A stretch of 64,000 nucleotides of DNA, taken from contig CAYIWY010000008.1 of the NCBI GenBank assembly GCA_964367355.1, forward strand, positions 15,172 to 79,171, read 5' to 3'. The notes under the pieces were generated by a model. That model saw only the letters and a list, made by a program, of their open reading frames with translations, made no database searches and was not told where the DNA came from. Positions 31,274 to 41,983 of this stretch are shown in pieces (within the stretch, counting starts at the first letter, position 1; the number at the start of each line of letters is the position of its first letter). The DNA is from an uncultured Gammaproteobacteria bacterium. Lineage in GTDB: Bacteria; Patescibacteriota; Microgenomatia; Woykebacterales; RBG-16-39-9b. The position numbers and the translations under genes were made by a program.

Positions 31274-31298
31274 GGCGTAATTTTTGCGCCCTGTTTTT
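31274..31298 (+). terminator. terminator-like hairpin in the nrdR leader (possible attenuator)
   Basis: GGCG-taatttttg-CGCC followed by CTGTTTTT, about 20 nt before the nrdR RBS. Confidence 0.3.
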
Positions 31299-31332
31299 GG
31301 AGTCTTCCAAATTCAGAAAAGGAGTTAATAAC

Positions 31333-31800
31333 GTGAAGTGCCCCTACTGCAGTTATTACGATACTTCAGTTCTAGATTCCAGAGATTCTGAGGATCTTGG
31401 TTCGATTCGCCGTCGACGAGAGTGTCTTAAATGTGAGAAGCGTTTCACAACTTACGAACGGGTGGATATGGTTAATATGTTTGTTTTGAAAAAAGACGGC
31501 CGACGGGAGCAATTTGATCGTAAGAAATTGATGACCGGAATGTTGAAAGCTACGGAAAAGCGACCGGTAACTATGGATCAGATTGAAAAAGCAGTTGATG
31601 AGATCGAGCGGGAGTTGCGTCGACGCGAAAGTATCGAGATTCCTTCAGCCGACATGGGTGAAGTGGTCATGAACAAGCTCAAAACACTTGATGAAGTTGC
31701 TTACATTCGTTTTGCCAGTGTTTACCGCTCGTTTGACAACCTCGAAACCTTTGAAAAAGAGGTTAAAAGTTTATTAAAAGATAAGGGTCATATTAACTAA
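31333..31800 (+). CDS. nrdR: transcriptional repressor NrdR
   Basis: GTG start after an AAGGAG RBS. VKCPYCSYYDTSVLDSR zinc ribbon plus an ATP-cone. Confidence 0.8.
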   Translation: MKCPYCSYYDTSVLDSRDSEDLGSIRRRRECLKCEKRFTTYERVDMVNMFVLKKDGRREQFDRKKLMTGMLKATEKRPVTMDQIEKAVDEIERELRRRESIEIPSADMGEVVMNKLKTLDEVAYIRFASVYRSFDNLETFEKEVKSLLKDKGHIN

Positions 31801-31805
31801 TTTAA

Positions 31806-34334
31806 TTGGAGGAAACTGCTCTTATGGCTAGTAAAAATAAAGCAACTAAGTCCCAAGGAAAGGAGTTTGTGTTTTCAATTAGTTTACAAAAGAAACTTGA
31901 AAAACTAATTTCCGACCAAGAGCAGACTAAACTAGAAGGGATTCGCGCTAAAGTTTTTACTGACCGCTACAGTTTAAAAGACTCTGAAGGAAAAAGTGTT
32001 GAAGAATATCCCGAGCAGATGTGGACTCGGGTCGCTGCCGGTCTAGCGCAGGTGGAGAAAACTCCGGTTCTTCAAGAAGAGTGGGCCAAGAAATTCTACA
32101 GTGCGCTCAAAGATTTTAAATATGTACCGGGTGGACGAGTACTCTCCGGAGCCGGAACTCCTTATGAAGTAACTTTCTATAATTGTTTTGTTATTCCCTC
32201 ACCTCACGACTCTCGAAACGGAATCATCGACAATTTAAAGCTGATGATTGATATCATGTCCCGTTCCGGTGGGGTTGGGATCAATCTGTCTTCTTTGCGA
32301 CCACGGGGAGCGCGAGTTAAAAAAGTTAACGGTACTTCTTCGGGACCAGTAAACTGGGCGCAGCTTTATTCCACTGCCACACATGACGTGATTCAGCAAG
32401 GCGGGAGCCGCCGCGGAGCTTTGATGCTGATGATCAATGACTGGCACCCTGATGTTGAGGAATTTATTGATGTTAAAAAAGATTTGACGAAAATCAATGG
32501 TGCGAATTTGTCAATTTGTGTTTCTGATGCTTTCATGACGGCAGTTAAAAATGATAAAGATTGGGATCTCTACTATCCAGATCTTTCTGAGCCTGATTAC
32601 GACAAACTTTGGGATGGGGATATAGATAAATGGAAAGCGGCAGGTAAGAAAGTTGTACTTTACCGAACTGTTAAAGCAGCACAAGTTTGGGAAAAAATCT
32701 GCCAAGCAGCTTGGAACAGTGCCGAACCAGGACTCCATTTTATTGAAAGAAGTAACAAACGAAGTAATACCTGGTACTTTGAAAAACTGATTGCGACCAA
32801 CCCTTGTGGCGAACAACCGCTTGGAGCTTGGGCAGTTTGCAACCTTGGTGCAGTCAATCTTTCCGCCTTCGTTAGTGAAGGAAGTTTTGATTATAAGGAT
32901 CTTGAAGAAAAAGTTCGAATTGCCATCAGGATGATGGACAATGTTATTGACTCAACTGGCTACTACTTTCCGGAAAACAAAGCGCAGCAGATGGGAATCC
33001 GTCGAACCGGACTGGGCACTATGGGACTTGGTGACGCTTTAATCAAAATGAAATTGCGTTATGGCAGCGAAGAAGCCCAGGGTGTGATTGAAAAGATTTA
33101 TAAAACAATTCGTGACAGTGCTTACGAAGAATCAGCGTATCTTGCAAAAGAAAAAGGTGTCTTTCCGAACTTTGACAAGGAAAAATATTTGCAAGGTTGG
33201 TTTATTAAAAAGCTTCCAAGCAAAGTCCGCGAAGAAATCGCGGAAAACGGAATTCGAAACGCAGTTCTTTTGACCCAAGCCCCAACCGGGACAACTTCTT
33301 TGGTTTCCGGAGTTTCTAGTGGGATTGAACCAGTTTACGACTTTGCGATGATCCGACGGGATAGAACCGGCGAGCATGTTTTGTATCACCCGCTTTACGA
33401 GGAATGGAAAAATGCCAACCCAGGTGTTGAGAAGACCCCTGATTATTTTGTATCTGCAAACGACCTCATACCAGAAGACCATGTTCGAGTTCAGGCTCTA
33501 ATTCAAGATTACACTGATAGTTCCATCTCCAAAACCGTAAACGCGCCAAATGCCCATACTGTTGAAGAGGTTCGCCGACTCTACATGCAAGCTTACGACC
33601 TTGGTTGTAAAGGTATTACCTATATGCGGGATGGGTCTCGCGAAGGAGTTTTGTCGCACAAGGATGACAAGGCTGAAAAAAAGGAGGAGCAGAGCGCAAA
33701 TGTTGCCAACGTTCCAGTCCATTTGCGTAAACGACCGGACAATTTAACTGGAATTACCAGAAGAATCGCAACTCCAGTGGGACACGCTTTCATCACCATC
33801 AACGAAGACGAAAATCACAACCCATTTGAAGTTTTCATCAACGTTGGTAAAGCAGGAACTGATATTTACGCCGATGCTGAAGCGATTGGGCGATTGATTT
33901 CTCTAGCTCTGCGAATCCCATCCAACTACGCGCCAGCAGAAGTAATTCAACAGGTGGTGAATCAACTTTCTGGAATTGGGGGTAGCTCCTCCCGCGGTTT
34001 TGGAGTTGATCGTATTCACTCTCTTGCTGACGCTGTCAGTAAAGTTTTGTCAGAATATTCTGGTAAAGTCAGTACTTACCCCTCAATTACGGAAACAAAA
34101 TTGGCCAATGGCAACGGTTTTACTAACGGTAACGGCCATTCTGTTAACGGTGAGATTAAAGATGAAGTAAAGATAGATCAGCCGGCAGTCGCCGCTTCGG
34201 AAGTTGTGACAATGCAAGCTTCGGTTATGAAGACTCAGTCACGCCGTGACATTTGTCCGAAATGTGGCGTCGCATCATTTATTTATGAGGAGGGTTGTAA
34301 AAAGTGCTATTCATGTGGGCACTCAGAGTGTTAG
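31806..34334 (+). CDS. nrdJ: ribonucleoside reductase, class II (adenosylcobalamin-dependent, monomeric NrdJ type) with C-terminal zinc finger
   Basis: NPCGEQPL active-site region, 842 aa, C-terminal CPKCG...CKKCYSCGH. No class I beta subunit in the window. Confidence 0.75.
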   Translation: MEETALMASKNKATKSQGKEFVFSISLQKKLEKLISDQEQTKLEGIRAKVFTDRYSLKDSEGKSVEEYPEQMWTRVAAGLAQVEKTPVLQEEWAKKFYSALKDFKYVPGGRVLSGAGTPYEVTFYNCFVIPSPHDSRNGIIDNLKLMIDIMSRSGGVGINLSSLRPRGARVKKVNGTSSGPVNWAQLYSTATHDVIQQGGSRRGALMLMINDWHPDVEEFIDVKKDLTKINGANLSICVSDAFMTAVKNDKDWDLYYPDLSEPDYDKLWDGDIDKWKAAGKKVVLYRTVKAAQVWEKICQAAWNSAEPGLHFIERSNKRSNTWYFEKLIATNPCGEQPLGAWAVCNLGAVNLSAFVSEGSFDYKDLEEKVRIAIRMMDNVIDSTGYYFPENKAQQMGIRRTGLGTMGLGDALIKMKLRYGSEEAQGVIEKIYKTIRDSAYEESAYLAKEKGVFPNFDKEKYLQGWFIKKLPSKVREEIAENGIRNAVLLTQAPTGTTSLVSGVSSGIEPVYDFAMIRRDRTGEHVLYHPLYEEWKNANPGVEKTPDYFVSANDLIPEDHVRVQALIQDYTDSSISKTVNAPNAHTVEEVRRLYMQAYDLGCKGITYMRDGSREGVLSHKDDKAEKKEEQSANVANVPVHLRKRPDNLTGITRRIATPVGHAFITINEDENHNPFEVFINVGKAGTDIYADAEAIGRLISLALRIPSNYAPAEVIQQVVNQLSGIGGSSSRGFGVDRIHSLADAVSKVLSEYSGKVSTYPSITETKLANGNGFTNGNGHSVNGEIKDEVKIDQPAVAASEVVTMQASVMKTQSRRDICPKCGVASFIYEEGCKKCYSCGHSEC

Positions 34335-34526: not shown

Positions 34527-35168
34527 TTACTTGCCAAGCAGAGTGTCAATTTTTTTCTTCCAAGTGTCGTAACTTTGGCCGCCGACTATCTTTTCTCCGT
34601 TAAGGAAAAAGGTTGGAGTTGAGTTAACTCCGAGAGTTTGACCATCGGTTTGATCGGCTTTAATTTTTTCATCAAACTTGTAGTCAACGATTGATTTTTT
34701 AAACTTAGCGGTATCGAGCTTTAATTCTGCCGCGTATTTTACAAAGTAATCAATTGCGTTATTACTTTCAGACCACTCAATTTGCCGAGAGTAAAGTATG
34801 TCATTCATTTCCCAATATTTTCCTTGTTCACCAGCGGCTTCAGCGGCTTCTGAACCAAGCTTCCCGTTTTGATGCTGGGGTAAAGGAAAGTGTCGGAAGA
34901 CAAAAGTCATCTTACCTTTATAATCATTTATGATTTTTTCGATAACAGGTGCAGCGGCACCGCAAGCCGGGCATTGATAATCTCCAAATTCGACTAAAGT
35001 AACTTTAGCGTCTTTAACCTCGATCTTATTGCTGTTAGCCCTTACTAAGGCGTCTTTTTTATCACCTGAAGTTGTCGGAGTTGTTGATCCAGAAAAAATC
35101 ACTACCACGCCAATAATAATTGCGCAAACTACACCTAGTCCTAAAAGCATTTTAACTTCGCCGCTCAT
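34527..35168 (-). CDS. DsbA-family thiol:disulfide oxidoreductase (membrane-anchored)
   Basis: N-terminal TM, CPAC active site, DsbA-like thioredoxin fold. Confidence 0.7.
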   Translation of the reverse strand: MSGEVKMLLGLGVVCAIIIGVVVIFSGSTTPTTSGDKKDALVRANSNKIEVKDAKVTLVEFGDYQCPACGAAAPVIEKIINDYKGKMTFVFRHFPLPQHQNGKLGSEAAEAAGEQGKYWEMNDILYSRQIEWSESNNAIDYFVKYAAELKLDTAKFKKSIVDYKFDEKIKADQTDGQTLGVNSTPTFFLNGEKIVGGQSYDTWKKKIDTLLGK

Positions 35169-35593
35169 TTATTTGTCCTCCAATAATAAAGCAGGCAAGT
35201 TGTAATGATAATAAAACTTACTAAAGATAAAAATGGAATGGTTATAAAGCCAAAATAATTAACCTCGCGAGTGGCACAACTGACCCCAACGCGGCAGGGA
35301 AACGATGCTTCCGTAAGAACCCCAAGTTGCAGTAGATACTGTAGGAAGGCAATTACTCCCCCGGCAATACTTAGCGGTAATGCGTAAAAAACCAGTTTTT
35401 TATCGTTAAGAATAATTCCGACAGCGATTATGACAACTAGTGGGTACATCGCAATTCGTTGATACCAACAAAGTAAACAGGGTGCATAGCCAAGGACTTC
35501 ACTAAAAATTAAACTACCAGCAGTCGCTGCAATTGCTTGGATCCAGGCAATATAAAGGACGTTTTTATCAAATATTTTTTTAACAGAGTTCAT
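35165..35593 (-). CDS. disulfide bond formation protein B (BdbC-type DsbB)
   Basis: CLLCWYQR and a second Cys pair CRVGVSC. 4 TM, 142 aa. Overlaps the dsbA-like gene. Confidence 0.65.
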   Translation of the reverse strand: MNSVKKIFDKNVLYIAWIQAIAATAGSLIFSEVLGYAPCLLCWYQRIAMYPLVVIIAVGIILNDKKLVFYALPLSIAGGVIAFLQYLLQLGVLTEASFPCRVGVSCATREVNYFGFITIPFLSLVSFIIITTCLLYYWRTNK

Positions 35594-35682
35594 AAACCAA
35601 AAGGTATTTTACCACAAAACCAGAGTTGACAAGAGGGTTAAATTATCCTAAAGTAATTACACTTTTACAATTTAAATCAAAG

Positions 35683-35880
35683 GATTATTGGTGAAGGACC
35701 GTGAAATTCGGTCGGAGTGCCGCTACTGTAATCCTTCGACTCCGCTCAGGATAGCCTGAGTGAAATCGAAGGCTAAACCCAGAACCCAACCTTTGATCCC
35801 GATCTTAATCGGGACACTTCGAGCAAAGGAAGGTTTCTGAAATGACCTTCCTATTAAAATAATATACGGAAGGTTTTTTG
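35683..35880 (+). ncRNA. cobalamin (B12) riboswitch-like leader with RBS-sequestering expression platform
   Basis: Core GGTGAAGGACCGTGAAATTCGGTCGGAGTGCCGCTACTGTAATCC fits the GGUG..AA.UCC...GCC.CUG pattern. B12-box-like TCAGGATAGCCTGAG. 3' end has mutually exclusive GGAAGG(35828)/CCTTCC(35846)/GGAAGG(35868, the RBS) pairings plus a T6 run. Confidence 0.65.
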
Positions 35881-37857
35881 ATGAAACAAAGTTTTTTTCT
35901 AACTAAATATTCGCTAAGAAACTTAATATCTATCGTTCTTACTACTGCAGTTATGTTGCCGTCTTTTATTATCGCTGCTCCTATTTCTGCAGCATCTGCT
36001 ACCAACGTTTTAGTTCAAGCCCGAGCTAATAGCCAAGTACTATTAAACCAACAAACCACTGTACCTGATGGTTGCAATGCCGTTGTTGATGGTGTTAGTC
36101 AATTTATAACCGGACCAAAAGTTGTTTGCGCTTTGGTCGCAGTCGCTAGCAGTTATACTTTGATAAATGACCCTAGTTACGGTGTTTTTCTAGAAAGCAT
36201 TAATGGAGTAACTAGCGGTCCGGGTTGGGTTTATACAGTTAACAACAACCGCATTAGTAGTGGTATAGCAGCCTACTCACTTCAAAGTGGTGATAGTGTG
36301 TTATTTAAATTTAGTACCGACTCCTCTGGTGCTATTGCTCTGCCACAGGCTCCAGTAAGTTTGCCGCAAACTCCAGTAGTTTTCAACCCACCTGCGGTAG
36401 TTAGTCAACCATCAGCTCCAACCAATACCACTTCAAGCAATCCTTCAATCCCAACAACTTCTGCAAATAATAATTGTTCAATCAGAGTAGCTTGGACTGC
36501 TTTTCAAAACCAGCGGCCAATTTTTTATGGTAGTTGGGACGGGAGTTACACTATCTTTGTTTTCCCAGATGGGCAAACCCGCGACCAATTTGTTTGGAGT
36601 AAGAAAATAACCGCCACTACAGTTGACGTAACTGGTTTGCAAAACGGTACCAGTTATCGTGGAGAGATTTTTATAACAGGAGCCTTTCTGTCTGGAGCGA
36701 CACCTTACTGGAGTAGTTTTGGGCCAGTTGGTTGTAAAGTTGTAAATAACACTAGTACTAGTAAACCCCAAACTAAAACGACAAACAAAACTACAACTAT
36801 AGCAAAGAAAACTACTCCAACAAAAATAACTCAGAACAAAAAGCAAGCAATTGAAAAAGCAATTAGCTACTTATTAACTCAACAAGGCGCAAGCGGTGAG
36901 ATCGAATCTTTGGGAGTAAGTGGTTGGTCTCTGTTAGCCTTTAGCGCTAGCGGGAAAATTAATGATAAATTGGTAAGTTTTCTTAAGGAAAACTCAAGTT
37001 ACGATAAACCAACTGATGTTGAAAGGACAATTTTAGTTGCTGTTGCTACTGGAATTGACCCTAAGGATTTTAACAGCACAAACCTGATTAAAAAACTGAG
37101 AGGTTTTGAAGTTAACGGGCAGATTGGTGATGAAAAAAGTTTAAGTGACGATATCTTTGGAATCTTAGCTTTCACCGCTGCTGGTGAAAACGACGAACCT
37201 TTATTGAAAAAAGCAACTAGTTTTGTCACCGAAAATCAAAACCAAGACGGTGGTTGGGGGTTTCAAGTTGGTCAAATAAGTGATGTTGATACCACGGCGG
37301 CAAGTGTCCAGGCTTTGAAAGCGGCCAAGAAAGCTAGTTTATCAGTTTCAGATTCAGTCTTGACCCAGGCAAAAAATTATTTGCATTCAGCTCAAAATCA
37401 GGATGGCGGTTTTGGTTTTAATAAAACTGATCAAAAAGTTTCAAATACTTCTTCGACTGCTTGGGCAATACAAGCTTTAGCGGCCTTGGGCGAAACTCCT
37501 ACTAAGGCTCTAACTTATTTACGACAACAGCAACTTGATAACGGTGGTTTTAGAACTGACACTAGTGGCCAAGTAAGTAACCTAGCGACCGCTTATGCGG
37601 TAGCAGCTTTAGCCGAAAAATCACTACCAATAAGGTCGTCAGTACTTGGTGCATCCACAGAAGTGATACCTAACCTACCAGATACAGGGTTTGACCAAGT
37701 TTGGTTGGGGATAATTAGTATAGTTTTAATTTCATTTGGACTTTTACTTATAACGAATAACCGTTTGCAAGCCAAAAATAAACGAAGAGTAATCTTCAAT
37801 TTTGCTGATTTTGCCGACTCAATTCATCATCGTCGGAGAGTGCGTCTGAGGGATTAG
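35881..37857 (+). CDS. LPXTG-anchored surface protein with prenyltransferase/squalene-cyclase-like (alpha/alpha toroid) repeats
   Basis: Signal peptide. QNQDGGWGF and QNQDGGFGF repeats. C-terminal LPDTG plus hydrophobic helix plus KNKRR sorting signal. Confidence 0.7.
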   Translation: MKQSFFLTKYSLRNLISIVLTTAVMLPSFIIAAPISAASATNVLVQARANSQVLLNQQTTVPDGCNAVVDGVSQFITGPKVVCALVAVASSYTLINDPSYGVFLESINGVTSGPGWVYTVNNNRISSGIAAYSLQSGDSVLFKFSTDSSGAIALPQAPVSLPQTPVVFNPPAVVSQPSAPTNTTSSNPSIPTTSANNNCSIRVAWTAFQNQRPIFYGSWDGSYTIFVFPDGQTRDQFVWSKKITATTVDVTGLQNGTSYRGEIFITGAFLSGATPYWSSFGPVGCKVVNNTSTSKPQTKTTNKTTTIAKKTTPTKITQNKKQAIEKAISYLLTQQGASGEIESLGVSGWSLLAFSASGKINDKLVSFLKENSSYDKPTDVERTILVAVATGIDPKDFNSTNLIKKLRGFEVNGQIGDEKSLSDDIFGILAFTAAGENDEPLLKKATSFVTENQNQDGGWGFQVGQISDVDTTAASVQALKAAKKASLSVSDSVLTQAKNYLHSAQNQDGGFGFNKTDQKVSNTSSTAWAIQALAALGETPTKALTYLRQQQLDNGGFRTDTSGQVSNLATAYAVAALAEKSLPIRSSVLGASTEVIPNLPDTGFDQVWLGIISIVLISFGLLLITNNRLQAKNKRRVIFNFADFADSIHHRRRVRLRD

Positions 37858-37874
37858 TAAGAAAGGGAAGAGTA

Positions 37875-38870
37875 ATGTTTTGGCAGAGGGAGACGAGTCG
37901 TCGGCAGCTTTTGGCTGGAGGATTAACAGTAGGAGTAGGAGCGGCTGCGTATCTCATGGTTGGTTGTTCCCCCGAGAAAGAGAACCAGCCTTCAGTTACT
38001 CAACCAGATCAAGTTGCAGCGGAAAAAGCAGGTGATTACTTGATTAGTTGGTTGCGAACATGGCCTAGCCAAGGACCAAAGGCCTGGCATCCAGCAGCGG
38101 TTTCGAGTATTTTTGCACTATCGTTAGCTGGTCGTGAAAAGGAAGTGGTTTTTGCCGATGGGGCTAGTGTCGATCTTTTTCTCAGTCGGGCACCTATCAC
38201 CCAAAAGGATCTTTTAAAGGCAACAACAGTTCTCGATCAAATTGCCTACATTGATTTGTCACGCGGACGACTTCCCGACTGGAAAACCCGCGAAAAGTAT
38301 TTAGCCGCGGCTATCAAGCGTGACATGCTGGATGGTAGAAACGCAGCCATGCTCTATTCGATAGCTCTGAACCGTTGGTCGCAAATTAGTGGTTACGGAA
38401 ACAGCGAGCTAACCGAAAATTTGCTTGAAAGAGTTTCGGTCAACCGTCAGATTAATGGTTGGTGTACCAATCAGGCTAGTTTGGAACAGGCAGATCAGTT
38501 GCCGAATGTTGATACCAACGCAATGGCAGTATTGGTGGGTGCAGCACCAATCAGCTTGCTTGAACTTGGCCGTCAAGGATCAGGTTGGCGTCACTTTGTC
38601 GATGACCCCGACCCAAGAGTAGAAGAAAATCTTGAGAGTACAGTAGCCGTGGGTTGGGCGAGAGGTCTTGGGAAGGAGAGTTTGGGGTTCGTTTTGGGAC
38701 TGCAAACAGTAGACGGAAGCTTCAAACACAGCCGTTCGGATCCAAAGGGTTATCCTGGTCCAACAGCCGAAGCACTGGCCTATTTTGCCTCACGAACGCA
38801 CCCGATCTTTGGTAAGTTATCAGGCAACCAACTTTCTCGAAAGGAGAGTTGGTTGCTTACTACTTGCTAA
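37875..38870 (+). CDS. twin-arginine (SRRQLL) signal lipoprotein-like protein with alpha/alpha-toroid-type repeats
   Basis: TSRRQLLAGG...LMVGCS (Tat motif plus lipobox-like Cys). QINGW and QTVDGSF repeats. Confidence 0.5.
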   Translation: MFWQRETSRRQLLAGGLTVGVGAAAYLMVGCSPEKENQPSVTQPDQVAAEKAGDYLISWLRTWPSQGPKAWHPAAVSSIFALSLAGREKEVVFADGASVDLFLSRAPITQKDLLKATTVLDQIAYIDLSRGRLPDWKTREKYLAAAIKRDMLDGRNAAMLYSIALNRWSQISGYGNSELTENLLERVSVNRQINGWCTNQASLEQADQLPNVDTNAMAVLVGAAPISLLELGRQGSGWRHFVDDPDPRVEENLESTVAVGWARGLGKESLGFVLGLQTVDGSFKHSRSDPKGYPGPTAEALAYFASRTHPIFGKLSGNQLSRKESWLLTTC

Positions 38871-38889
38871 AAATTGATAATCGAAGGAG

Positions 38890-39324
38890 GTGAATTTAAT
38901 TATGAAATCAATTCAAAAGAACATAGTCCTAGTTATAATTGCTGCTTTAATGATTTTAGGTGGTGGTTTTCTTTACCTTGATCAAAATAGAGTGAGCGAA
39001 ACCAAAAAAACTACAGTGACCGAGCAAAAGAAAGCAGTTGCTACTAATGTTTCAATCAAAGCTGATGGTCAAGAAAAGAAATACGAAGTTGAAAACTCTG
39101 TTGGTAAAACCGCACTTGAGGTTACCAAAAATGCGACGAGCGATGTTAAAATGACTGGTGAGGGAGAAAATGCCTTTATTACCGCAATTAATGGCCGAGA
39201 AGCTTCAAGTACAAAAAAGGAATTTTGGAAATTGGTTATTAACGGTAAAGATAGTGAGGTTGGAGCCGGGAGTTACACTGTAAAAGAAGGTGACTCTGTA
39301 GGTTGGGAAATTGCTACTTATTAA
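38890..39324 (+). CDS. DUF4430-domain protein (membrane-anchored)
   Basis: N-terminal TM. C-terminal GEGENAFITAINGREAS...FWKLVINGKDSEVGAGSYTVKEGDSVGWE matches the DUF4430 pattern. Confidence 0.5.
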   Translation: MNLIMKSIQKNIVLVIIAALMILGGGFLYLDQNRVSETKKTTVTEQKKAVATNVSIKADGQEKKYEVENSVGKTALEVTKNATSDVKMTGEGENAFITAINGREASSTKKEFWKLVINGKDSEVGAGSYTVKEGDSVGWEIATY

Positions 39325-39403
39325 TCTTGATATATAATTAATTAGTACTAAACTATCAGCCAGTCGGCTGACCTGCCCAATTATTACTAAGAAAGAGTTA
39401 TAA

Positions 39404-39955
39404 ATGCAGAAAGTTTTTGAAAAATTATCAAATCCAGTAATATTTGTCCTCGTTGCCGCAATCTTGCGTTTAGTGCCACATCTGCCAAACTTTGCACCGA
39501 TTAGTGCCATGGCTCTTTTTGGCGGTGCTTACTTGGGCCGGCGTTACGCTTTGGCATTACCGTTTTTGGCAATGGTTCTATCAGATCTGTTTATCGGTTT
39601 TGATAGCATCGCCTCTCGGGTAACAGTCTATGGGAGTTTTCTGCTAATCGGTTTGGTTGGTTTATGGTTGCGTAAACACCGCTCGTTCCAAAATATTGTA
39701 CTTGCGACTTTGGTATCATCAGTACTTTTCTTTGTGATTACCAACTTTGGAGTTTGGGCATTTGGAGTAATGTATCCAAAAACTTCATTTGGCCTTCTAG
39801 CTTGTTTTACCGCTGCGCTTCCGTTTTTCAGAAACACTATGGTCGGTGATATGTTTTATTCTGCCGTTTTCTTTGGCGGTTACGAGCTAGTTAGGAAACT
39901 TGCAACAAGTAACAATTTAGCTTTAGTATCTATTGGAGGAAAGAAAAATGACTAA
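39404..39955 (+). CDS. ECF-transporter S-component-like small polytopic membrane protein
   Basis: 183 aa with 5-6 TM, the size and topology of ECF S components. No A/T components nearby. Confidence 0.35.
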   Translation: MQKVFEKLSNPVIFVLVAAILRLVPHLPNFAPISAMALFGGAYLGRRYALALPFLAMVLSDLFIGFDSIASRVTVYGSFLLIGLVGLWLRKHRSFQNIVLATLVSSVLFFVITNFGVWAFGVMYPKTSFGLLACFTAALPFFRNTMVGDMFYSAVFFGGYELVRKLATSNNLALVSIGGKKND

Positions 39956-40184
39956 AAAAGAGAACTATGAAGTACGCGGTGAGGAAGTCCTAAAAAAGGT
40001 TAAGGAATTAATTAAAGAAGGCAATGTTCGCCGCATAATTATCAAAGATAAAAAAGATAAAGTACTGGTCGAATTTCCTTTGACAATTGGAGTAGTTGGA
40101 GCGGTTCTTGCCCCAGTTTTGGCTGCAGTGGGTGCAATCGCAGCTTTGGTGGCTGAGTGTACTATTTCGGTTGAGCGAGACTAG
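39948..40184 (+). CDS. DUF4342-domain protein
   Basis: GNVRRIIIKDKKDKVLVEFPLTIGVVGAVLAPVLAAVGAIAAL is the typical DUF4342 pattern. Confidence 0.5.
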   Translation: MTKKENYEVRGEEVLKKVKELIKEGNVRRIIIKDKKDKVLVEFPLTIGVVGAVLAPVLAAVGAIAALVAECTISVERD

Positions 40185-40295
40185 AAACAACACTAGTTGA
40201 CAAGTCAGCTTCAAAACCTATATAATCAAAACTTCGTGAAAATTAAACAACCCGGAAACGAGTTGTTTTCTTTTGGACAATAATCGGGAGGATTT

Positions 40296-40478
40296 GTGAG
40301 TCTAGAGCAGGGAAGTTTGTGGAAGATCGTCGAAGCGTTTAATCCGCTTTCGTTGTTTGTTGCAGGGGTGTATGGAGCCTATGCAATTGCTGCAGTCCAT
40401 GATAATGATTATGGACCCTCTAATATTATCGCTCTTACAGTAGAAGAAGAGTCAGATGAAGATGAGGACGCAGCTTAA
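40296..40478 (+). CDS. hypothetical small membrane protein with acidic tail
   Basis: 60 aa with one TM and a C-terminal EEESDEDEDAA. Confidence 0.35.
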   Translation: MSLEQGSLWKIVEAFNPLSLFVAGVYGAYAIAAVHDNDYGPSNIIALTVEEESDEDEDAA

Positions 40479-40522
40479 TTTGTGATCACGCGGTAACTCT
40501 CTGAGGAAGCCGTTTGGTCAAC

Positions 40523-40568
40523 GCCCACCATATATACGCGGGGATATATGGTGGGCCTTTTCTTTTCC
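40523..40568 (+). terminator. rho-independent terminator ending the riboswitch-controlled operon
   Basis: GCCCACCATATAT-acgcgggg-ATATATGGTGGGC perfect 13-bp stem followed by CTTTTCTTTTCC. Confidence 0.7.
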
Positions 40569-40594
40569 TCAAAACTTTCTGGTATACTTTTCTC

Positions 40595-41983
40595 ATGGCA
40601 AAACTAAATCAATATATGTTTCGTGAGTACGATATTCGTGGACGTGAAAGTGAAGAAGAGCTAAACAATAATTCAGTATATTTGATTGCAAAATCTTACG
40701 GGACGTTTCTTCGGAAAAGAGGAATCATTGAGTCAGTAGTCGGTCACGATAACCGCAAAAGTTCTGAAGATTTTTATGAACAGTCAGTCAAGGGACTGCG
40801 TGAAACTGGTATTAATGTTATAGGTTTTGGAGTTGGAACAACTCCAATGATGTATTGGGCCCAATACTATTTCAAGAGCAAAGGAGGTTTGATGGTTACA
40901 GCGAGTCACAACCCTGCTGGTTGGAATGGTGTAAAACTCGCGCTCGGATACTCTTACACATTAATTGGTGATGAAGTAAAAGAAATTCAACGTGTGGCCG
41001 AGAGTGAGGAGTTCGAAAGTGGAAATGGGACTTTTCGGGAGGAAAATATTCTTAATGCCTACATAAAAGACCTAGTTTCGCGGGCAAAACTTCATAAGAA
41101 GTTGAAGGTTTTAATCAACACTGCAAACGCAACAAGCGGTATTGTTTCCCCAAAAATGCTAAGAGATTTTGGTTGTGAGGTTGTCGAGCATAATACCAAC
41201 TTAGACCCGTCTTATCCAAATTATGTCCCCAACCCAGCGAATGTTGAAATGATGGAAGATACTGGAAAGATGGTGGTAAAGAATAATTGTGATGTTGGTC
41301 TTGCAATTGATGCTGATGGGGATCGAGTTGGTGTTACTGATGAAAAAGGAAATGTGATCTGGCCTGACCGCTATATAATTTTACTTTCTCGTTTAGTTTT
41401 AGAAAAACATCCTGGAGCGAAAATAATTTTCGATGTTAAGGTTTCCGAAAGTTTACCTGAGGATATCAAGGCTCATGGAGGCGTCCCAATAATGTGGAAA
41501 ACTGGCCATTCCTATATCAAGGAAAAGTTGCATGATGAAAAAGCTGCCTTTGCTGGTGAAATGAGTGGGCATATCTTTTTTGTCGAGGATTTCTATGGTT
41601 TTGATGATGCCAATTTTGCCGCCTTGAAGTTGCTAGAATATATTTCCAAACAAAAAGAACCTCTTTCAGAAATAATTAAGAAAACTCCTTATTATGTTTC
41701 AACCCCAACCTATCAGGCGCATTGTGGAGATGATGTTAAATATCAGGTTGTTGATAAATTAACGCAAGAATTCAAAAATGAAGGTTACAGGGTAGTTGAT
41801 ATTAATGGGGCGAGGGTTTACCTTGAAGATGGCTGGGGATTAGTTCGAGCTTCGTCAAACTTGCCAGCGCTGGTTATTCGTTTTGAGGCTAAGACCCAAG
41901 CTGGATTAGAAAAAATTGAAAAAATCTTTAAAGATAAGTTTTCTAAATACCCAGAAATTGGGATTGAATTGGAGTCAGCTTGA
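40595..41983 (+). CDS. phosphoglucomutase/phosphomannomutase family protein
   Basis: TASHNPAGWNGVK active-site Ser motif, GDGDRVGV metal loop. Start moved to MAKLNQ, downstream of the terminator. Confidence 0.8.
   Translation: MAKLNQYMFREYDIRGRESEEELNNNSVYLIAKSYGTFLRKRGIIESVVGHDNRKSSEDFYEQSVKGLRETGINVIGFGVGTTPMMYWAQYYFKSKGGLMVTASHNPAGWNGVKLALGYSYTLIGDEVKEIQRVAESEEFESGNGTFREENILNAYIKDLVSRAKLHKKLKVLINTANATSGIVSPKMLRDFGCEVVEHNTNLDPSYPNYVPNPANVEMMEDTGKMVVKNNCDVGLAIDADGDRVGVTDEKGNVIWPDRYIILLSRLVLEKHPGAKIIFDVKVSESLPEDIKAHGGVPIMWKTGHSYIKEKLHDEKAAFAGEMSGHIFFVEDFYGFDDANFAALKLLEYISKQKEPLSEIIKKTPYYVSTPTYQAHCGDDVKYQVVDKLTQEFKNEGYRVVDINGARVYLEDGWGLVRASSNLPALVIRFEAKTQAGLEKIEKIFKDKFSKYPEIGIELESA

Follow-up and report, generated by a model that had tools for sequence, protein, structure and literature searches.

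In the 64,000-nucleotide stretch of DNA analysed here (the window), a cobalamin-sensing OFF riboswitch probably controls an operon for the scavenging and import of B12, in a bacterium with an adenosylcobalamin-dependent ribonucleotide reductase (RNR) gene next door. The host seems to belong to the CPR/Patescibacteria and to be of the Microgenomates type. The evidence consists of the RNA family, its structure and covariation, its association with genes, and the folds and fusions of the encoded proteins, all of which the analysis shows. An earlier sequence-only reading had pointed to such a system from the letters of the window; every sequence feature that it named is present where it had been placed, its observation is confirmed, and its interpretation is supported and largely right.

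The operon and its neighbours

The features of the locus are collected in Table 1. In a survey of 80 related DUF6580 loci (L numbers below), RNR lies upstream of the DUF4430-DUF6580 module in 41 and NrdR in 34, so that the adjacency of a B12-dependent class II RNR, noticed earlier in the window, is conserved. Three related genomes retain the operon in full.

Protein P5, recognized earlier as a DUF4342 protein, is a clade-specific neighbour: it is conserved in L081, L082, and L084, and in the wider set of 80 loci it occurs only once. Its translation more likely begins at the ATG at 39948. The small membrane protein that the sequence-only reading had counted as the last member (P6) is doubtful as part of the operon: it has neither a family match nor a tblastn match in L081-L085, the orthologous operons lack an equivalent, and it is preceded by a perfect promoter consensus (TTGACA-18-TATAAT, 40197-40226). 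The strong terminator described at the operon end was found.

Table 1. Coordinates of the leader elements, genes, and flanking features in the window.
Feature	Position	Strand	Basis or detail
nrdR	31297-31800	+	Context (Pfam)
nrdJ, adenosylcobalamin-dependent class II RNR	31806-34334	+	NCBIfam TIGR02504 NrdJ_Z, 568 bits (cut-off 400)
Promoter-like site	35626-35654	+	TTGACA-17 nt-TAAAGT; consensus scan 10/12
Cobalamin-clan riboswitch aptamer	35677-35796	+	Sub-threshold Rfam scores, model R1, covariation
Aptamer helices	P1 35677-83/35790-96; P2 35688-91/35786-89; P4 35697-701/35709-13; P5-L5 35716-24; P6 35726-28/35780-82		
P6 extension	35732-35773	+	TCCTTCGA...TCGAAGG around hairpin CTCAGG-ATAG-CCTGAG
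Linker hairpin, between helices P1 and P13	35797-35814	+	TCCCGAT-CTTA-ATCGGGA; centroid fold
P13 hairpin	35817-35828	+	CTT/AAG, loop L13 = CGAGCA; covarying stem
Anti-sequestor/antiterminator helix	35827-35852	+	AGGAAGGU (35827-34) pairs with ACCUUCCU (35845-52)
Sequestor/terminator hairpin	35845-35879	+	ACCUUCC pairs with GGAAGGU (35868-74, ribosome-binding site), then U6
Protein P1, wall-anchored surface protein	35881-37857	+	Domain order in text
Protein P2, Tat-signal lipoprotein, divergent toroid paralog	37875-38870	+	hhalign, family alignment
Protein P3, membrane-anchored DUF4430 protein (transcobalamin beta-domain/SLBB)	38890-39324	+	Pfam, 63.9 bits
Protein P4, DUF6580 membrane protein, ECF S-component fold, candidate B12 translocator	39404-39955	+	Pfam, 181 bits
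Protein P5, small DUF4342 protein	39933-40184	+	Pfam, 101.8 bits; overlaps P4 end
Protein P6, 60-aa ORF	40296-40478	+	Operon membership doubtful
Intrinsic-terminator-like hairpin	40523-40566	+	13 bp, T-rich tail; terminator scan; closes transcription unit(s)

The DUF4430-DUF6580 core

The core regulated module is DUF4430 plus DUF6580: in 54 of the 80 loci, DUF6580 is immediately preceded by a P3-type DUF4430 gene. P3 has a match in the haptocorrin C-terminal domain (4kki, E = 0.003), in keeping with the earlier suggestion that DUF4430 is the bacterial counterpart of the transcobalamin beta domain, and we identify DUF4430 as the transcobalamin C-terminal beta domain. P4, described earlier as resembling an ECF S-component, has that fold; in structure it comes closest to BtuM, a B12 transporter. 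It differs from BtuM, in which Cys80 is essential, in lacking the cysteine ligand, as the DUF6580 family has no invariant cysteine.

It is possible, though on balance doubtful, that DUF6580 is a conventional S-component docking onto a shared EcfA/A'/T module whose genes lie at another locus, with ATP-driven import, and not a solitary BtuM-like carrier. The only PDB sequence match of the family is chain A of ECF-CbrT, a weak one (E = 0.015), some family members also match PF12822 and PF07155, and fusion relatives belong to full ECF operons that also encode CbiQ and two ABC ATPases. However, this operon, its orthologs, and 20 further ORFs of the window contain neither EcfT nor EcfA, and the sole ABC ATPase found adjoins a gene that has permeases of the MacB/FtsX type as its orthologs in L081/L082. 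Besides the structural match to BtuM, the Ignavibacteria point the same way: a riboswitch copy is followed by a TonB-dependent receptor and then by DUF6580, ECF genes were not called there, and BtuM has been described in the same layout.

The toroid surface proteins

Proteins P1 and P2 are lineage-specific accessories of this core. P1 consists of a signal peptide, a DUF4430/SLBB domain (aa 100-145; Pfam, 40.4 bits), a beta-sandwich domain, a low-complexity linker, an (alpha/alpha)6 toroid, and an LPDTG anchor. The sortase substrate with QxxDGGWG/QxxDGGFG repeats recognized earlier is borne out by its C-terminus (LPDTG, a hydrophobic stretch, and KNKRR; TIGR01167, 16.7 bits against a cut-off of 15.9) and by the repeats QNQDGGWGF and QNQDGGFGF, which score above the Pfam cut-offs for SQHop_cyclase_C/N and Prenyltrans. 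P2 has no Pfam match and only five relatives among 1.84 billion representatives. As the sequence-only reading proposed, it is a twin-arginine lipoprotein with related repeats: SRRQLL precedes LMVGC, neither the RR nor the lipobox G-C varies within the family, and hhalign aligns it with the toroid family over 243 columns (93.2% probability, E = 2.9e-7). P1 and P2 have no match to PF01122 at E <= 0.01. To call the transcobalamin-like system "split", as the sequence-only reading did, is an overstatement because P1 carries both domains, in reversed order.

The toroid fold by itself does not discriminate for B12 binding, as terpene cyclases rank above B12 carriers in fold comparison and glycoside hydrolases score about equal. 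It could be argued that P1 and P2 do not bind B12 and are merely co-transcribed (alpha/alpha)6 enzymes of the prenyltransferase, terpene-cyclase, or glycosidase kind, or adhesins, next to a B12-related riboswitch and DUF4430-DUF6580 transporter. Pfam gives SQHop_cyclase/Prenyltrans and no Cobalamin_bind match, a toroid is present in just 9 of the 80 loci, and P2 is nearly an orphan. We consider this unlikely, since in many proteins the toroid is fused in a single chain to DUF4430 or to DUF6580/ECF-S domains, and fusion operons of the order DUF4430-CbiQ-ABC-ABC-S::toroid are led by canonical RF00174 riboswitches (83 and 80 bits). In L051 and L057, the riboswitch stands directly 5' of the toroid gene. 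Moreover, P1 has DVDTTA (family consensus SDxDxTA) at the position of the class II cyclase DxDD motif, both proteins are exported and remote from isoprenoid substrates, and Burroughs et al. predicted in 2007 that surface proteins of the same SLBB-plus-toroid architecture scavenge B12 (PMC1796856). The fusions and the canonical riboswitches of other phyla tie the toroid family to B12.

Instead of cobalamin, the system might import another tetrapyrrole, either heme or a precursor of corrinoids, for example cobinamide. In L. sakei, a split pair of transcobalamin alpha-like and beta-like proteins with an ECF transporter (lsa1836-1840) has been linked to heme (preprint 10.1101/864751), DUF6580 lacks the BtuM cysteine ligand, and the prediction of Burroughs et al. 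extended to "B12 or its precursors" (PMC1796856). Against this, the RNA that controls the operon belongs to the cobalamin clan, both in this lineage and in other phyla, where it takes the canonical form; adenosylcobalamin-dependent nrdJ is linked in 41 of the 80 loci, and Gram-negative relatives have a riboswitch and a TonB-dependent receptor ahead. We regard another tetrapyrrole as very improbable, and uptake of a cobinamide-type corrinoid would be a variant of B12 import, not a rival to it.

The leader RNA

The leader carries GGTGAA...GTGAAATTCGG...GCCGCTACTGT at 35690-35729. The Rfam search that the sequence-only reading proposed gave no match at gathering, for the window or for the closest orthologous leaders, but with permissive filters the aptamer scored with cobalamin families only: RF01482 at 24.4 bits (cut-off 50) and RF01689 at 20.5 bits (cut-off 36.5). 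Homologous leaders pass RF01689 gathering (L038, 44.3; L001, 40.4; L006, 39.1; L029, 38.4 bits). A custom model, R1, built from 19 leader copies, scores 82.4 bits on the window aptamer. A search of 1.16 Mb with this model gave 63 copies, of which 62 share the strand of the genes; at E < 1e-3, copies occur in 48 of the 80 loci. The first gene 3' of a copy mostly encodes DUF4430, and otherwise DUF6580, a toroid protein, or, in Ignavibacteria, the TonB-dependent receptor ahead of DUF6580. Leader sequence and structure are kept across dozens of related loci, far beyond chance, and the fold of the whole leader has z = -5.6.

In the 19-sequence alignment, 94% of cells are paired and 8 of 15 pairs are compensatory; in the 63 copies, the values are 91% and 11 of 15 (changed on both sides), against 24-49% of cells in their slid controls (24-50% over both alignments). 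Four helices and the kissing loop all show strong compensatory variation. The P13 stem covaries (CTT/AAG, CCT/AGG, TCC/GGA, CTG/CAG, TTCT/AGAA), and L13 (CGAGCA) is the predicted partner of L5 (UGCCG, 35718-35722). Their 14 distinct combinations form on average 4.86 of 5 pairs, compared with 4.20 +/- 0.14 after shuffling, and 0 of 20000 shuffles attained the observed 4.86; this matches the expectation for the kissing loop of cobalamin riboswitches. Given the sub-threshold Rfam score, it is the comparative evidence that settles the membership of the leader in the cobalamin riboswitch clan. The aptamer has the four-way-junction core of that clan plus a lineage-variable P6 extension, which is a 42-nt insertion in the Rfam alignment, found in the window, L082, and L009 and missing from L084, L081, L001, L006, and L029.

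The B12-box assignment of the sequence-only reading was rejected. The proposed box, TCAGGATAGCCTGAG (35746-35760), is the variable tip hairpin of the P6 extension and is missing from close orthologs; in the Rfam alignment, it is AAACCCAGAACC (35775-35786) that falls on the conserved core. At the position of the linker hairpin, L017 has a hairpin of other sequence, TCCGCCAGCTGGCGGA. A second CAAAGG can compete for the 3' strand of helix P1 in the leader fold.

The switch platform

The transcript may start about 15 nt 5' of the aptamer, from the promoter-like site, a block conserved in the leaders of L082 and L084. Downstream, GGAAGG (35828-35833), CCTTCC (35846-35851), and a second GGAAGG (35868-35873) are followed by T6 (35874-35879), the second GGAAGG standing 7 nt 5' of the ATG at 35881. 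The alternative pairing seen earlier is real, mutually exclusive, conserved in orthologs, and energetically balanced: -13.5 kcal/mol for the anti-sequestor helix and -11.1 kcal/mol for the sequestor hairpin, both with z about -3 against shuffles. Transcript prefixes that end at 35853-35867 are predicted to fold into the anti-sequestor helix, which is kept in L082 and L084 and also in L081, where it includes a G.U pair. The sequestor hairpin becomes the minimum-energy fold once P13/L13 is locked. It is, however, already in the full-length thermodynamic minimum without a ligand constraint, and the switch must therefore be kinetic.

A rival view, in which the leader is a relic, decayed or non-functional, or else some structured RNA of unrelated origin, and the GGAAGG/CCTTCC repeats are a coincidence, is hardly credible: the window and its closest orthologs do lack an Rfam gathering match, and the hexamers are near-invariant among those orthologs, which leaves little covariation for the anti-sequestor helix, but homologous leaders pass gathering, four helices and the kissing loop vary in compensation, the 63 copies show strict strand and position bias, and other lineages have terminator-type hairpins in the same place with other stem sequences and the T-run retained.

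Proposed mechanism and implications

When B12 is bound, L5 would pair with L13 of the P13 hairpin, and this kissing loop would hold the adjoining first GGAAGG. CCUUCC would then pair with the ribosome-binding site, and the hairpin with its U6 would terminate transcription and hide that site. Without B12, the first GGAAGG would pair with CCUUCC, and the operon would be expressed. The wall-anchored P1 and the lipoprotein P2 would act as outer capture proteins, their toroids and beta domains rebuilding the transcobalamin alpha/beta sandwich; the membrane-tethered P3 would capture B12 and hand it to P4, the relative of BtuM, which would carry it across the membrane. The OFF direction, the identity of the ligand, the order of hand-over, and the action of P4 without an ATPase module are what we infer from these comparisons.

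The novelty implied by the sequence-only reading does not extend to the general concept, which was predicted in 2007 (PMC1796856), with the split pair of L. sakei also studied (10.1101/864751). The leader is a divergent RNA switch, presumably B12-sensing, that standard annotation has overlooked, and the system in its present version has so far gone undescribed.

A divergent lineage of cobalamin riboswitches

At Rfam gathering thresholds, the whole 64-kb window yields one tRNA only and no riboswitch. The leader, the region 5' of the first operon gene, in which the sequence-only reading had seen a cobalamin riboswitch, therefore fails the Rfam test at that level. With permissive filters, cobalamin families are the only riboswitch families that score on the leader: RF01482 reaches 24.4 bits against a gathering threshold of 50 (35668-35842), and RF01689, with the aptamer alone, 20.5 bits against 36.5. 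L082 and L084, two orthologous operons in other genomes, also have no gathering match (L084, 27.8 bits). Because the scores of the window are inconclusive alone, relatives were gathered as 80 genomic loci retrieved via a profile of 40 proteins of DUF6580, the family of the fourth operon product. These loci come mostly from CPR/Patescibacteria (Levy-, Woese-, Woyke-, Doudnabacteria, and others), with some Ignavibacteria and Bacteroidota. It should be mentioned that several contigs with typical CPR synteny bear the label Nanoarchaeia or Gammaproteobacteria, apparently in error; L003, on a CPR-like contig labelled "Gammaproteobacteria", also contains a group I intron (66.3 bits to RF00028, which is above gathering).

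An nhmmer search with the window leader finds same-strand homologs just 5' of the DUF4430 gene in many DUF6580 loci, including L009 (E = 2e-29), L029, L017, L023, L001, and L006, and four homologous leaders pass the RF01689 gathering threshold: L038 (44.3 bits), L001 (40.4), L006 (39.1), and L029 (38.4). In an alignment of 19 aptamers, with helices imposed from the Rfam architecture, 94% of cells are paired and 8/15 pairs are compensatory, and only 25-50% of cells are paired once the partners are slid. The covariance model built from this alignment has 63 matches in 1.16 Mb, 62 of them on the strand of the DUF6580 gene; across the 63 aptamers, 91% of cells are paired and 11/15 pairs are compensatory, against 24-50% of cells paired in slid-partner controls. 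The junction core with helices P2, P4, P5, and P6 thus covaries as in the cobalamin clan, and matches at E < 1e-3 occur at 48 of the 80 loci, so the riboswitch is kept at orthologous and related loci. On the comparative evidence of the passing homologs, the helix covariation, and the strand-biased copies, the leader is a true member, under structural constraint, of the cobalamin clan (CL00101), and ligand binding is predicted. The earlier proposal stands in this respect, although the window copy itself lies below gathering for both RF01482 and RF01689; the curated thresholds miss its clade because of its sequence divergence.

With RF01689 (AdoCbl-II/class II, env8 type) and RF01482 (AdoCbl), the leader shares the junction core (GUGAAAUUC hairpin, GCCGCUACUG, and CCAGAA), helices with covariation, an L5-L13 kissing loop, and a place before B12 uptake genes, whereas the window copy and its nearest orthologs score under every curated threshold (20-28 bits). 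The short core resembles that of class II, to which the window copy adds a 42-nt P6 extension that varies within one orthologous lineage: the window, L082, and L009 have it, whereas the orthologs L084 and L081 lack it, as do L001, L006, and L029. The supposed B12 box, TCAGGATAGCCTGAG, is the tip of this optional extension; it was rejected as a B12 box because Rfam treats it as an insertion and several relatives lack the segment.

The CAAAGG of the helix P1 5' strand is repeated within and just past hairpin P13, and this duplication is kept in L009, L006, L023, L017, and L029. In the full-length minimum-energy fold, the helix P1 3' strand CCUUUG pairs with the second CAAAGG, which may be an anti-P1 element.

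Coordinates of the features in the window and, where a locus is named, in other genomes
Feature	Coordinates	Strand	Remark
NrdJ, class II RNR	31806-34334		NrdR precedes
DsbA-like/DsbB pair	34527-35593	-	between nrdJ and riboswitch
Promoter-like TTGACA-17-TAAAGT	35626-54	+	kept in orthologs
Helix P1	35677-83/35790-96	+	aptamer
CAAAGG, first and second copy	35678-35683, 35824-35829		first copy in helix P1 5' strand
Helix P2	35688-91/35786-89	+	aptamer
Helix P4	35697-701/35709-13	+	aptamer
P5-L5	35716-24	+	aptamer
Helix P6	35726-28/35780-82	+	aptamer
Supposed B12 box	35746-35760		tip of P6 extension
Conserved core segment AAACCCAGAACC	35775-86	+	aptamer
P13 hairpin	35817-28	+	then GGAAGG in window, L082, L084
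First GGAAGG	35828-33	+	pairs with CCTTCC
Mini-ORF	35842-35862		rejected as leader peptide
CCTTCC	35846-51	+	common to both alternative helices
Second GGAAGG+T6	35868-79	+	before ATG 35881
Protein P1	35881-37857		wall-anchored toroid
Protein P3	38890-39324		DUF4430
Protein P4	39404-39955		DUF6580
Promoter consensus TTGACA-18-TATAAT	40197-40226		between P5 and 60-aa ORF
60-aa ORF (P6)	40296-40478		rejected as operon member
Phosphomannomutase-like ORF	40514-41983		as listed
Terminator hairpin, 13-bp	40523-40556	+	operon end
360-480 aa family	L010:9144-10235, L039:9134-10228, L063:9202-10647, L032:9311-10732		at least 14 further loci
Two-ORF nrdJ	L082:2756-5276, L083:1809-4329		168 + 691 aa
Group I intron	L003:15644-15942	-	RF00028

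Expression platform

A short hairpin, P13, lies 3' of helix P1 in every relative; its loop, CGAGCA, is near-invariant, its stem covaries (CTT/AAG, CCT/AGG, TCC/GGA, CTG/CAG, TTCT/AGAA), and its 3' arm extends into the Shine-Dalgarno sequence. In class II cobalamin riboswitches, B12 stabilises an L5-L13 kissing loop that blocks the ribosome-binding site (RBS). The simplest relatives (L011, L022, L024, L005, L003, and L009) have the same layout, with the start codon directly after the P13 hairpin. Here, L5 UGCCG pairs with L13 CG(A)GCA, and there are variants altered on both sides (UACCG/CGAGUA, ACCCG/CGAGGU, UCAGG/CC..GA). In a hand-curated register with bulges allowed, the 14 distinct L5/L13 combinations have a mean of 4.86 paired positions out of 5; permuting the partners gives 4.20 +/- 0.14, and none of 20000 permutations reaches the observed mean. 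The covariation thus points to a regulatory kissing loop with P13 adjoining the RBS, as in the cobalamin clan.

Whereas class II riboswitches occlude the start site directly, the clade of the window has an anti-sequestor and a terminator/RBS hairpin 3' of P13. The window, L082, and L084 share the order P13 hairpin, GGAAGG, CCTTCC, GGAAGG+T6, and the alternative pairing read from the window sequence holds, in that the motifs are in place and the two helices (-13.5 and -11.1 kcal/mol) are mutually exclusive. The first helix is predicted for transcript prefixes too short to include the last arm; locking P13/L13 makes the second helix the minimum-energy fold, with the RBS hidden and U6 after it. 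Other lineages have terminator hairpins in the same place with different stem sequences. From these modelled folds, we infer that the leader would be a kinetic OFF switch that affects termination as well as the initiation of translation. Its ON/OFF direction cannot be drawn from thermodynamics alone, since the unconstrained full-length minimum-energy fold already contains the sequestor hairpin together with the CCUUUG:CAAAGG pairing. A mini-ORF (ATG ACC TTC CTA TTA AAA TAA, MTFLLK*), which starts 8 nt 3' of the first GGAAGG, was considered as a leader peptide and rejected; it is unconserved in L081 and L084 and so is probably a chance occurrence.

Operon content and synteny

The motifs and ORFs described in the sequence-only reading are all present as described. 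The core module is a DUF4430 gene followed directly by a DUF6580 gene (54/80 loci), with an RNR homolog just upstream in 41/80 and NrdR in 34/80; a toroid protein occurs in only 9/80. The first gene after a riboswitch copy is usually DUF4430 and sometimes DUF6580 or a toroid protein, and in the Ignavibacteria the riboswitch is followed first by a TonB-dependent receptor, with DUF6580 downstream. In other words, the copies lie before B12-related genes (DUF4430, DUF6580, toroid, or TonB-receptor), as in the cobalamin clan. In the window, the neighbouring RNR was rightly taken as B12-dependent class II: it matches the NrdJ equivalog TIGR02504 at 568 bits against a cut-off of 400.

The full operon encoding proteins P1-P5, with nrdR-nrdJ upstream, is kept in three related metagenomic genomes. 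Protein P5 (DUF4342) was rejected as a core component, being clade-specific (1/80 loci). The 60-aa ORF that had been counted as the last member is unsupported: the orthologous operons L081-L085 have no detectable counterpart, and between P5 and this ORF stands a perfect promoter consensus. The strong terminator proposed at the operon end is a 13-bp hairpin. The next ORF, phosphomannomutase-like, has its listed start upstream of this hairpin; the gene probably starts at an ATG near 40595 (MAKLNQ...), and its orthologs are called ~110 aa longer, at 599 aa.

A DsbA-like/DsbB pair between nrdJ and the riboswitch also occurs in L082/L083, and not in L084. Because the exported N-terminal and middle domains of protein P1 have two cysteines each, a link between this pair and surface-protein folding is possible. 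In the closest relative (L082/L083), nrdJ appears as two overlapping ORFs, which may reflect a frameshift, misassembly, or a genuine split.

In other loci, an unannotated family of 360-480 aa is encoded ~1 kb past the DUF6580 gene, with a separate cobalamin riboswitch copy in front. Its members share an SPPG motif and, at the C-terminus, a CPxC...CPxC tail that resembles a zinc ribbon; there is no Pfam match, a PDB profile search matches the ribbon only, and no N-terminal signal peptide is apparent in the one member read, that of L063. These proteins might be B12-processing enzymes or B12-independent isozymes.

The toroid proteins P1 and P2

Protein P1 combines squalene-cyclase/prenyltransferase toroid repeats with an LPXTG anchor (Pfam, NCBIfam). 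It matches SQHop_cyclase_C (45 bits vs 26.1), SQHop_cyclase_N (43 vs 26.2), and Prenyltrans (33.1 vs 26.5), the terpene cyclase/prenyltransferase families tested being PF13243, PF13249, and PF00432. Its C-terminus runs LPDTG, then FDQVWLGIISIVLISFGLLLI, then NNRLQAKNKRR; this sequence has the motif, hydrophobic segment, and basic tail of a predicted sortase substrate and matches TIGR01167 at 16.7 bits against 15.9, in agreement with the first description of the protein. That description had overlooked a DUF4430 domain at aa 100-145 (PF14478, 40.4 bits), so the order in P1 is beta (aa ~40-145), beta-sandwich, linker, and alpha (aa 320-585).

The Pfam matches would also fit a terpene cyclase. 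In squalene-hopene-type cyclases, an intact DxDD is the catalytic acid motif; in P1 it is not intact (S-D-V-D-T-T-A, with a family consensus of SDxDxTA in which the fourth position is variable), and the NCBIfam cyclase equivalogs fall far below their cut-offs (e.g., 32 bits vs 431). The toroid is modelled as an (alpha/alpha)6 domain with pLDDT above 90, and intrinsic factor (21.7), transcobalamin (20.0), and haptocorrin (19.8) are also among the structures that the model matches. Fold alone is thus undecisive: the fold search fails to separate B12 carriers from terpene cyclases, and PF01122 (Cobalamin_bind) has no match in P1 or P2 at E <= 0.01. A link between the toroid and B12 comes from three independent observations. 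Firstly, many proteins are fusions of the toroid with DUF4430 or with DUF6580/ECF-S domains. Secondly, the fusion-protein loci L086 and L088, with the order DUF4430-CbiQ-ABC-ABC-S::toroid, are headed by canonical RF00174 riboswitches at 83 and 80 bits; L087 has the same gene order and no RF00174 match, and its operon start lies at the edge of the fetched DNA. Thirdly, a riboswitch lies directly 5' of the toroid genes in L051 and L057.

Protein P2 has no Pfam match and only five relatives among 1.84 billion representatives. Its RR and lipobox are invariant in the family, as expected of the twin-arginine lipoprotein with related repeats that had been proposed, and by hhalign it matches the toroid family (93%, E = 2.9e-7). 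Profile-profile comparison thus makes it a divergent toroid paralog; the link is seen there only, and pairwise BLASTP against P1 gives nothing (E = 0.45).

P3 (DUF4430) and P4 (DUF6580)

Protein P3 is a DUF4430 protein (PF14478, 63.9 bits). The suggestion that DUF4430 is the bacterial counterpart of the transcobalamin beta domain proved correct: P3 matches the C-terminal beta domain of haptocorrin (4kki, E = 0.003), and DUF4430 and the transcobalamin beta/SLBB domain are treated as one and the same in the literature (PMC1796856).

Protein P4 (183 aa) belongs to DUF6580 (181 bits), a family of >3,600 database proteins, and its AlphaFold model (pLDDT 82) has the six-helix fold of an ECF S-component, which agrees with its original description as S-component-like. 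The only sequence match of the DUF6580 profile in the PDB is 6fnp chain A (ECF-CbrT), and it is weak (E = 0.015). BtuM, a solitary S-component-like B12 transporter, was not found by single-sequence or profile searches of the PDB, and the structural identity between P4 and BtuM (8ovv) is 11%. Among 40 DUF6580 sequences, none of the 33 invariant columns is cysteine. With no sequence homology and no invariant cysteine, DUF6580 is, on sequence grounds, not a member of the BtuM family.

Relation to known B12 systems

BtuM of Thiobacillus denitrificans (~22 kDa; PMC6072759; PDB 8ovv) is similar in size to P4 and likewise has no ECF genes nearby, and in the Gram-negative relatives DUF6580 likewise has a TonB-dependent receptor and a cobalamin riboswitch beside it. 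On the contrary, BtuM requires Cys80, the axial cobalt ligand (PMC6072759), and DUF6580 has no invariant cysteine; BtuM is proteobacterial and works without a DUF4430 binder, whereas DUF6580 occurs mainly in CPR/Patescibacteria and Ignavibacteria/Bacteroidota and is almost always paired with one.

P4 also shares the S-component fold with ECF-CbrT, with marginal sequence similarity, and the toroid-fused relatives stand in full ECF operons; neither this operon nor the examined portion of the window has an EcfA/EcfT. We know of no DUF4430 or toroid partner of the ECF-CbrT system. ECF-CbrT is described as an ECF-type B12 importer of Lactobacillus delbrueckii (PMC5997447; PDB 6fnp).

The eukaryotic B12 carriers transcobalamin, intrinsic factor, and haptocorrin (PF01122) have in common with this operon a beta domain (P3, P1) and an alpha toroid (P1). 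Transcobalamin is a soluble single chain with the alpha domain N-terminal and the beta domain C-terminal, whereas the order is reversed in P1, the alpha-only P2 and beta-only P3 are separate membrane-tethered proteins, and P1-P3 are all wall- or membrane-anchored. In 2007, Burroughs et al. reported transcobalamin-like SLBB proteins from bacteria, which carry signal peptides and Gram-positive anchors, have toroids fused to them on either side, and are accompanied by a second SLBB paralog; the authors predicted B12 scavenging; their operons include CbiO/CbiQ genes in hosts without B12 synthesis (PMC1796856). The architecture is essentially that of this operon. For Lactobacillus sakei Lsa1839/Lsa1840, a split alpha-like/beta-like pair with an ECF transporter, heme has been argued (10.1101/864751). 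Both systems go with CbiO/CbiQ (ECF) genes, unlike the present operon, in which DUF6580 is the partner and no ATPase is encoded; riboswitch control and nrdJ linkage are undescribed there, and the CPR lineage was unknown then.

The evidence supports the finding as real and, with the above corrections, the interpretation given to it from the sequence. It is not a categorically new system, because both the riboswitch class and the idea of transcobalamin-like scavenging are already established. What is new is DUF6580 as a partner, its widespread linkage with DUF4430 and nrdJ in CPR, a divergent riboswitch lineage whose platform is composite, and a toroid protein that is an orphan Tat-lipoprotein; in the literature searched, we found no prior description of any of these, nor a B12 test of the 2007 prediction.

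Proposed mechanism and significance

We propose that B12 would repress the operon via the riboswitch. When B12 is scarce, wall-anchored P1 (beta and alpha), membrane-tethered P2 (alpha), and P3 (beta) would capture corrinoid at the surface; P3 would hand it to P4 for translocation, and the imported B12 would serve NrdJ. By analogy with BtuM, an ATPase may be dispensable for P4: inspection of the operon, its orthologous counterparts, and 20 other window ORFs revealed no ECF module. Alternatively, a shared ECF module elsewhere in the genome may serve P4.

In its widest form, the proposal of an ATPase-free importer is tentative, and we put it at somewhat under an even chance: DUF4430 and DUF6580 would together be an unrecognised minimal ATPase-independent B12 importer and the main route in CPR/Patescibacteria. 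A membrane-tethered beta-domain would pass B12 to a BtuM-like solitary S-component with no cysteine ligand, and the module would be genetically coupled to the adenosylcobalamin-dependent RNR. Some lineages would add a wall-to-membrane toroid relay (P1, then P2/P3), a transcobalamin made from separate parts, and the riboswitch would be a distinct subclass missed by current Rfam models.

These observations add riboswitch, fusion, and fold evidence to the 2007 prediction and give testable functions to two DUF families, DUF6580 and bacterial DUF4430. They also indicate that a whole cobalamin-riboswitch lineage lies under the curated detection thresholds, and the natural split transcobalamin architecture is material for studying the evolution of the carriers. 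The CPR/Patescibacteria are tiny bacteria with reduced genomes, and to our knowledge their acquisition of cofactors is poorly understood. In the genomes concerned, the B12-dependent NrdJ adjoins a B12-regulated uptake module, and if it is their sole RNR, DNA synthesis would need scavenged B12.
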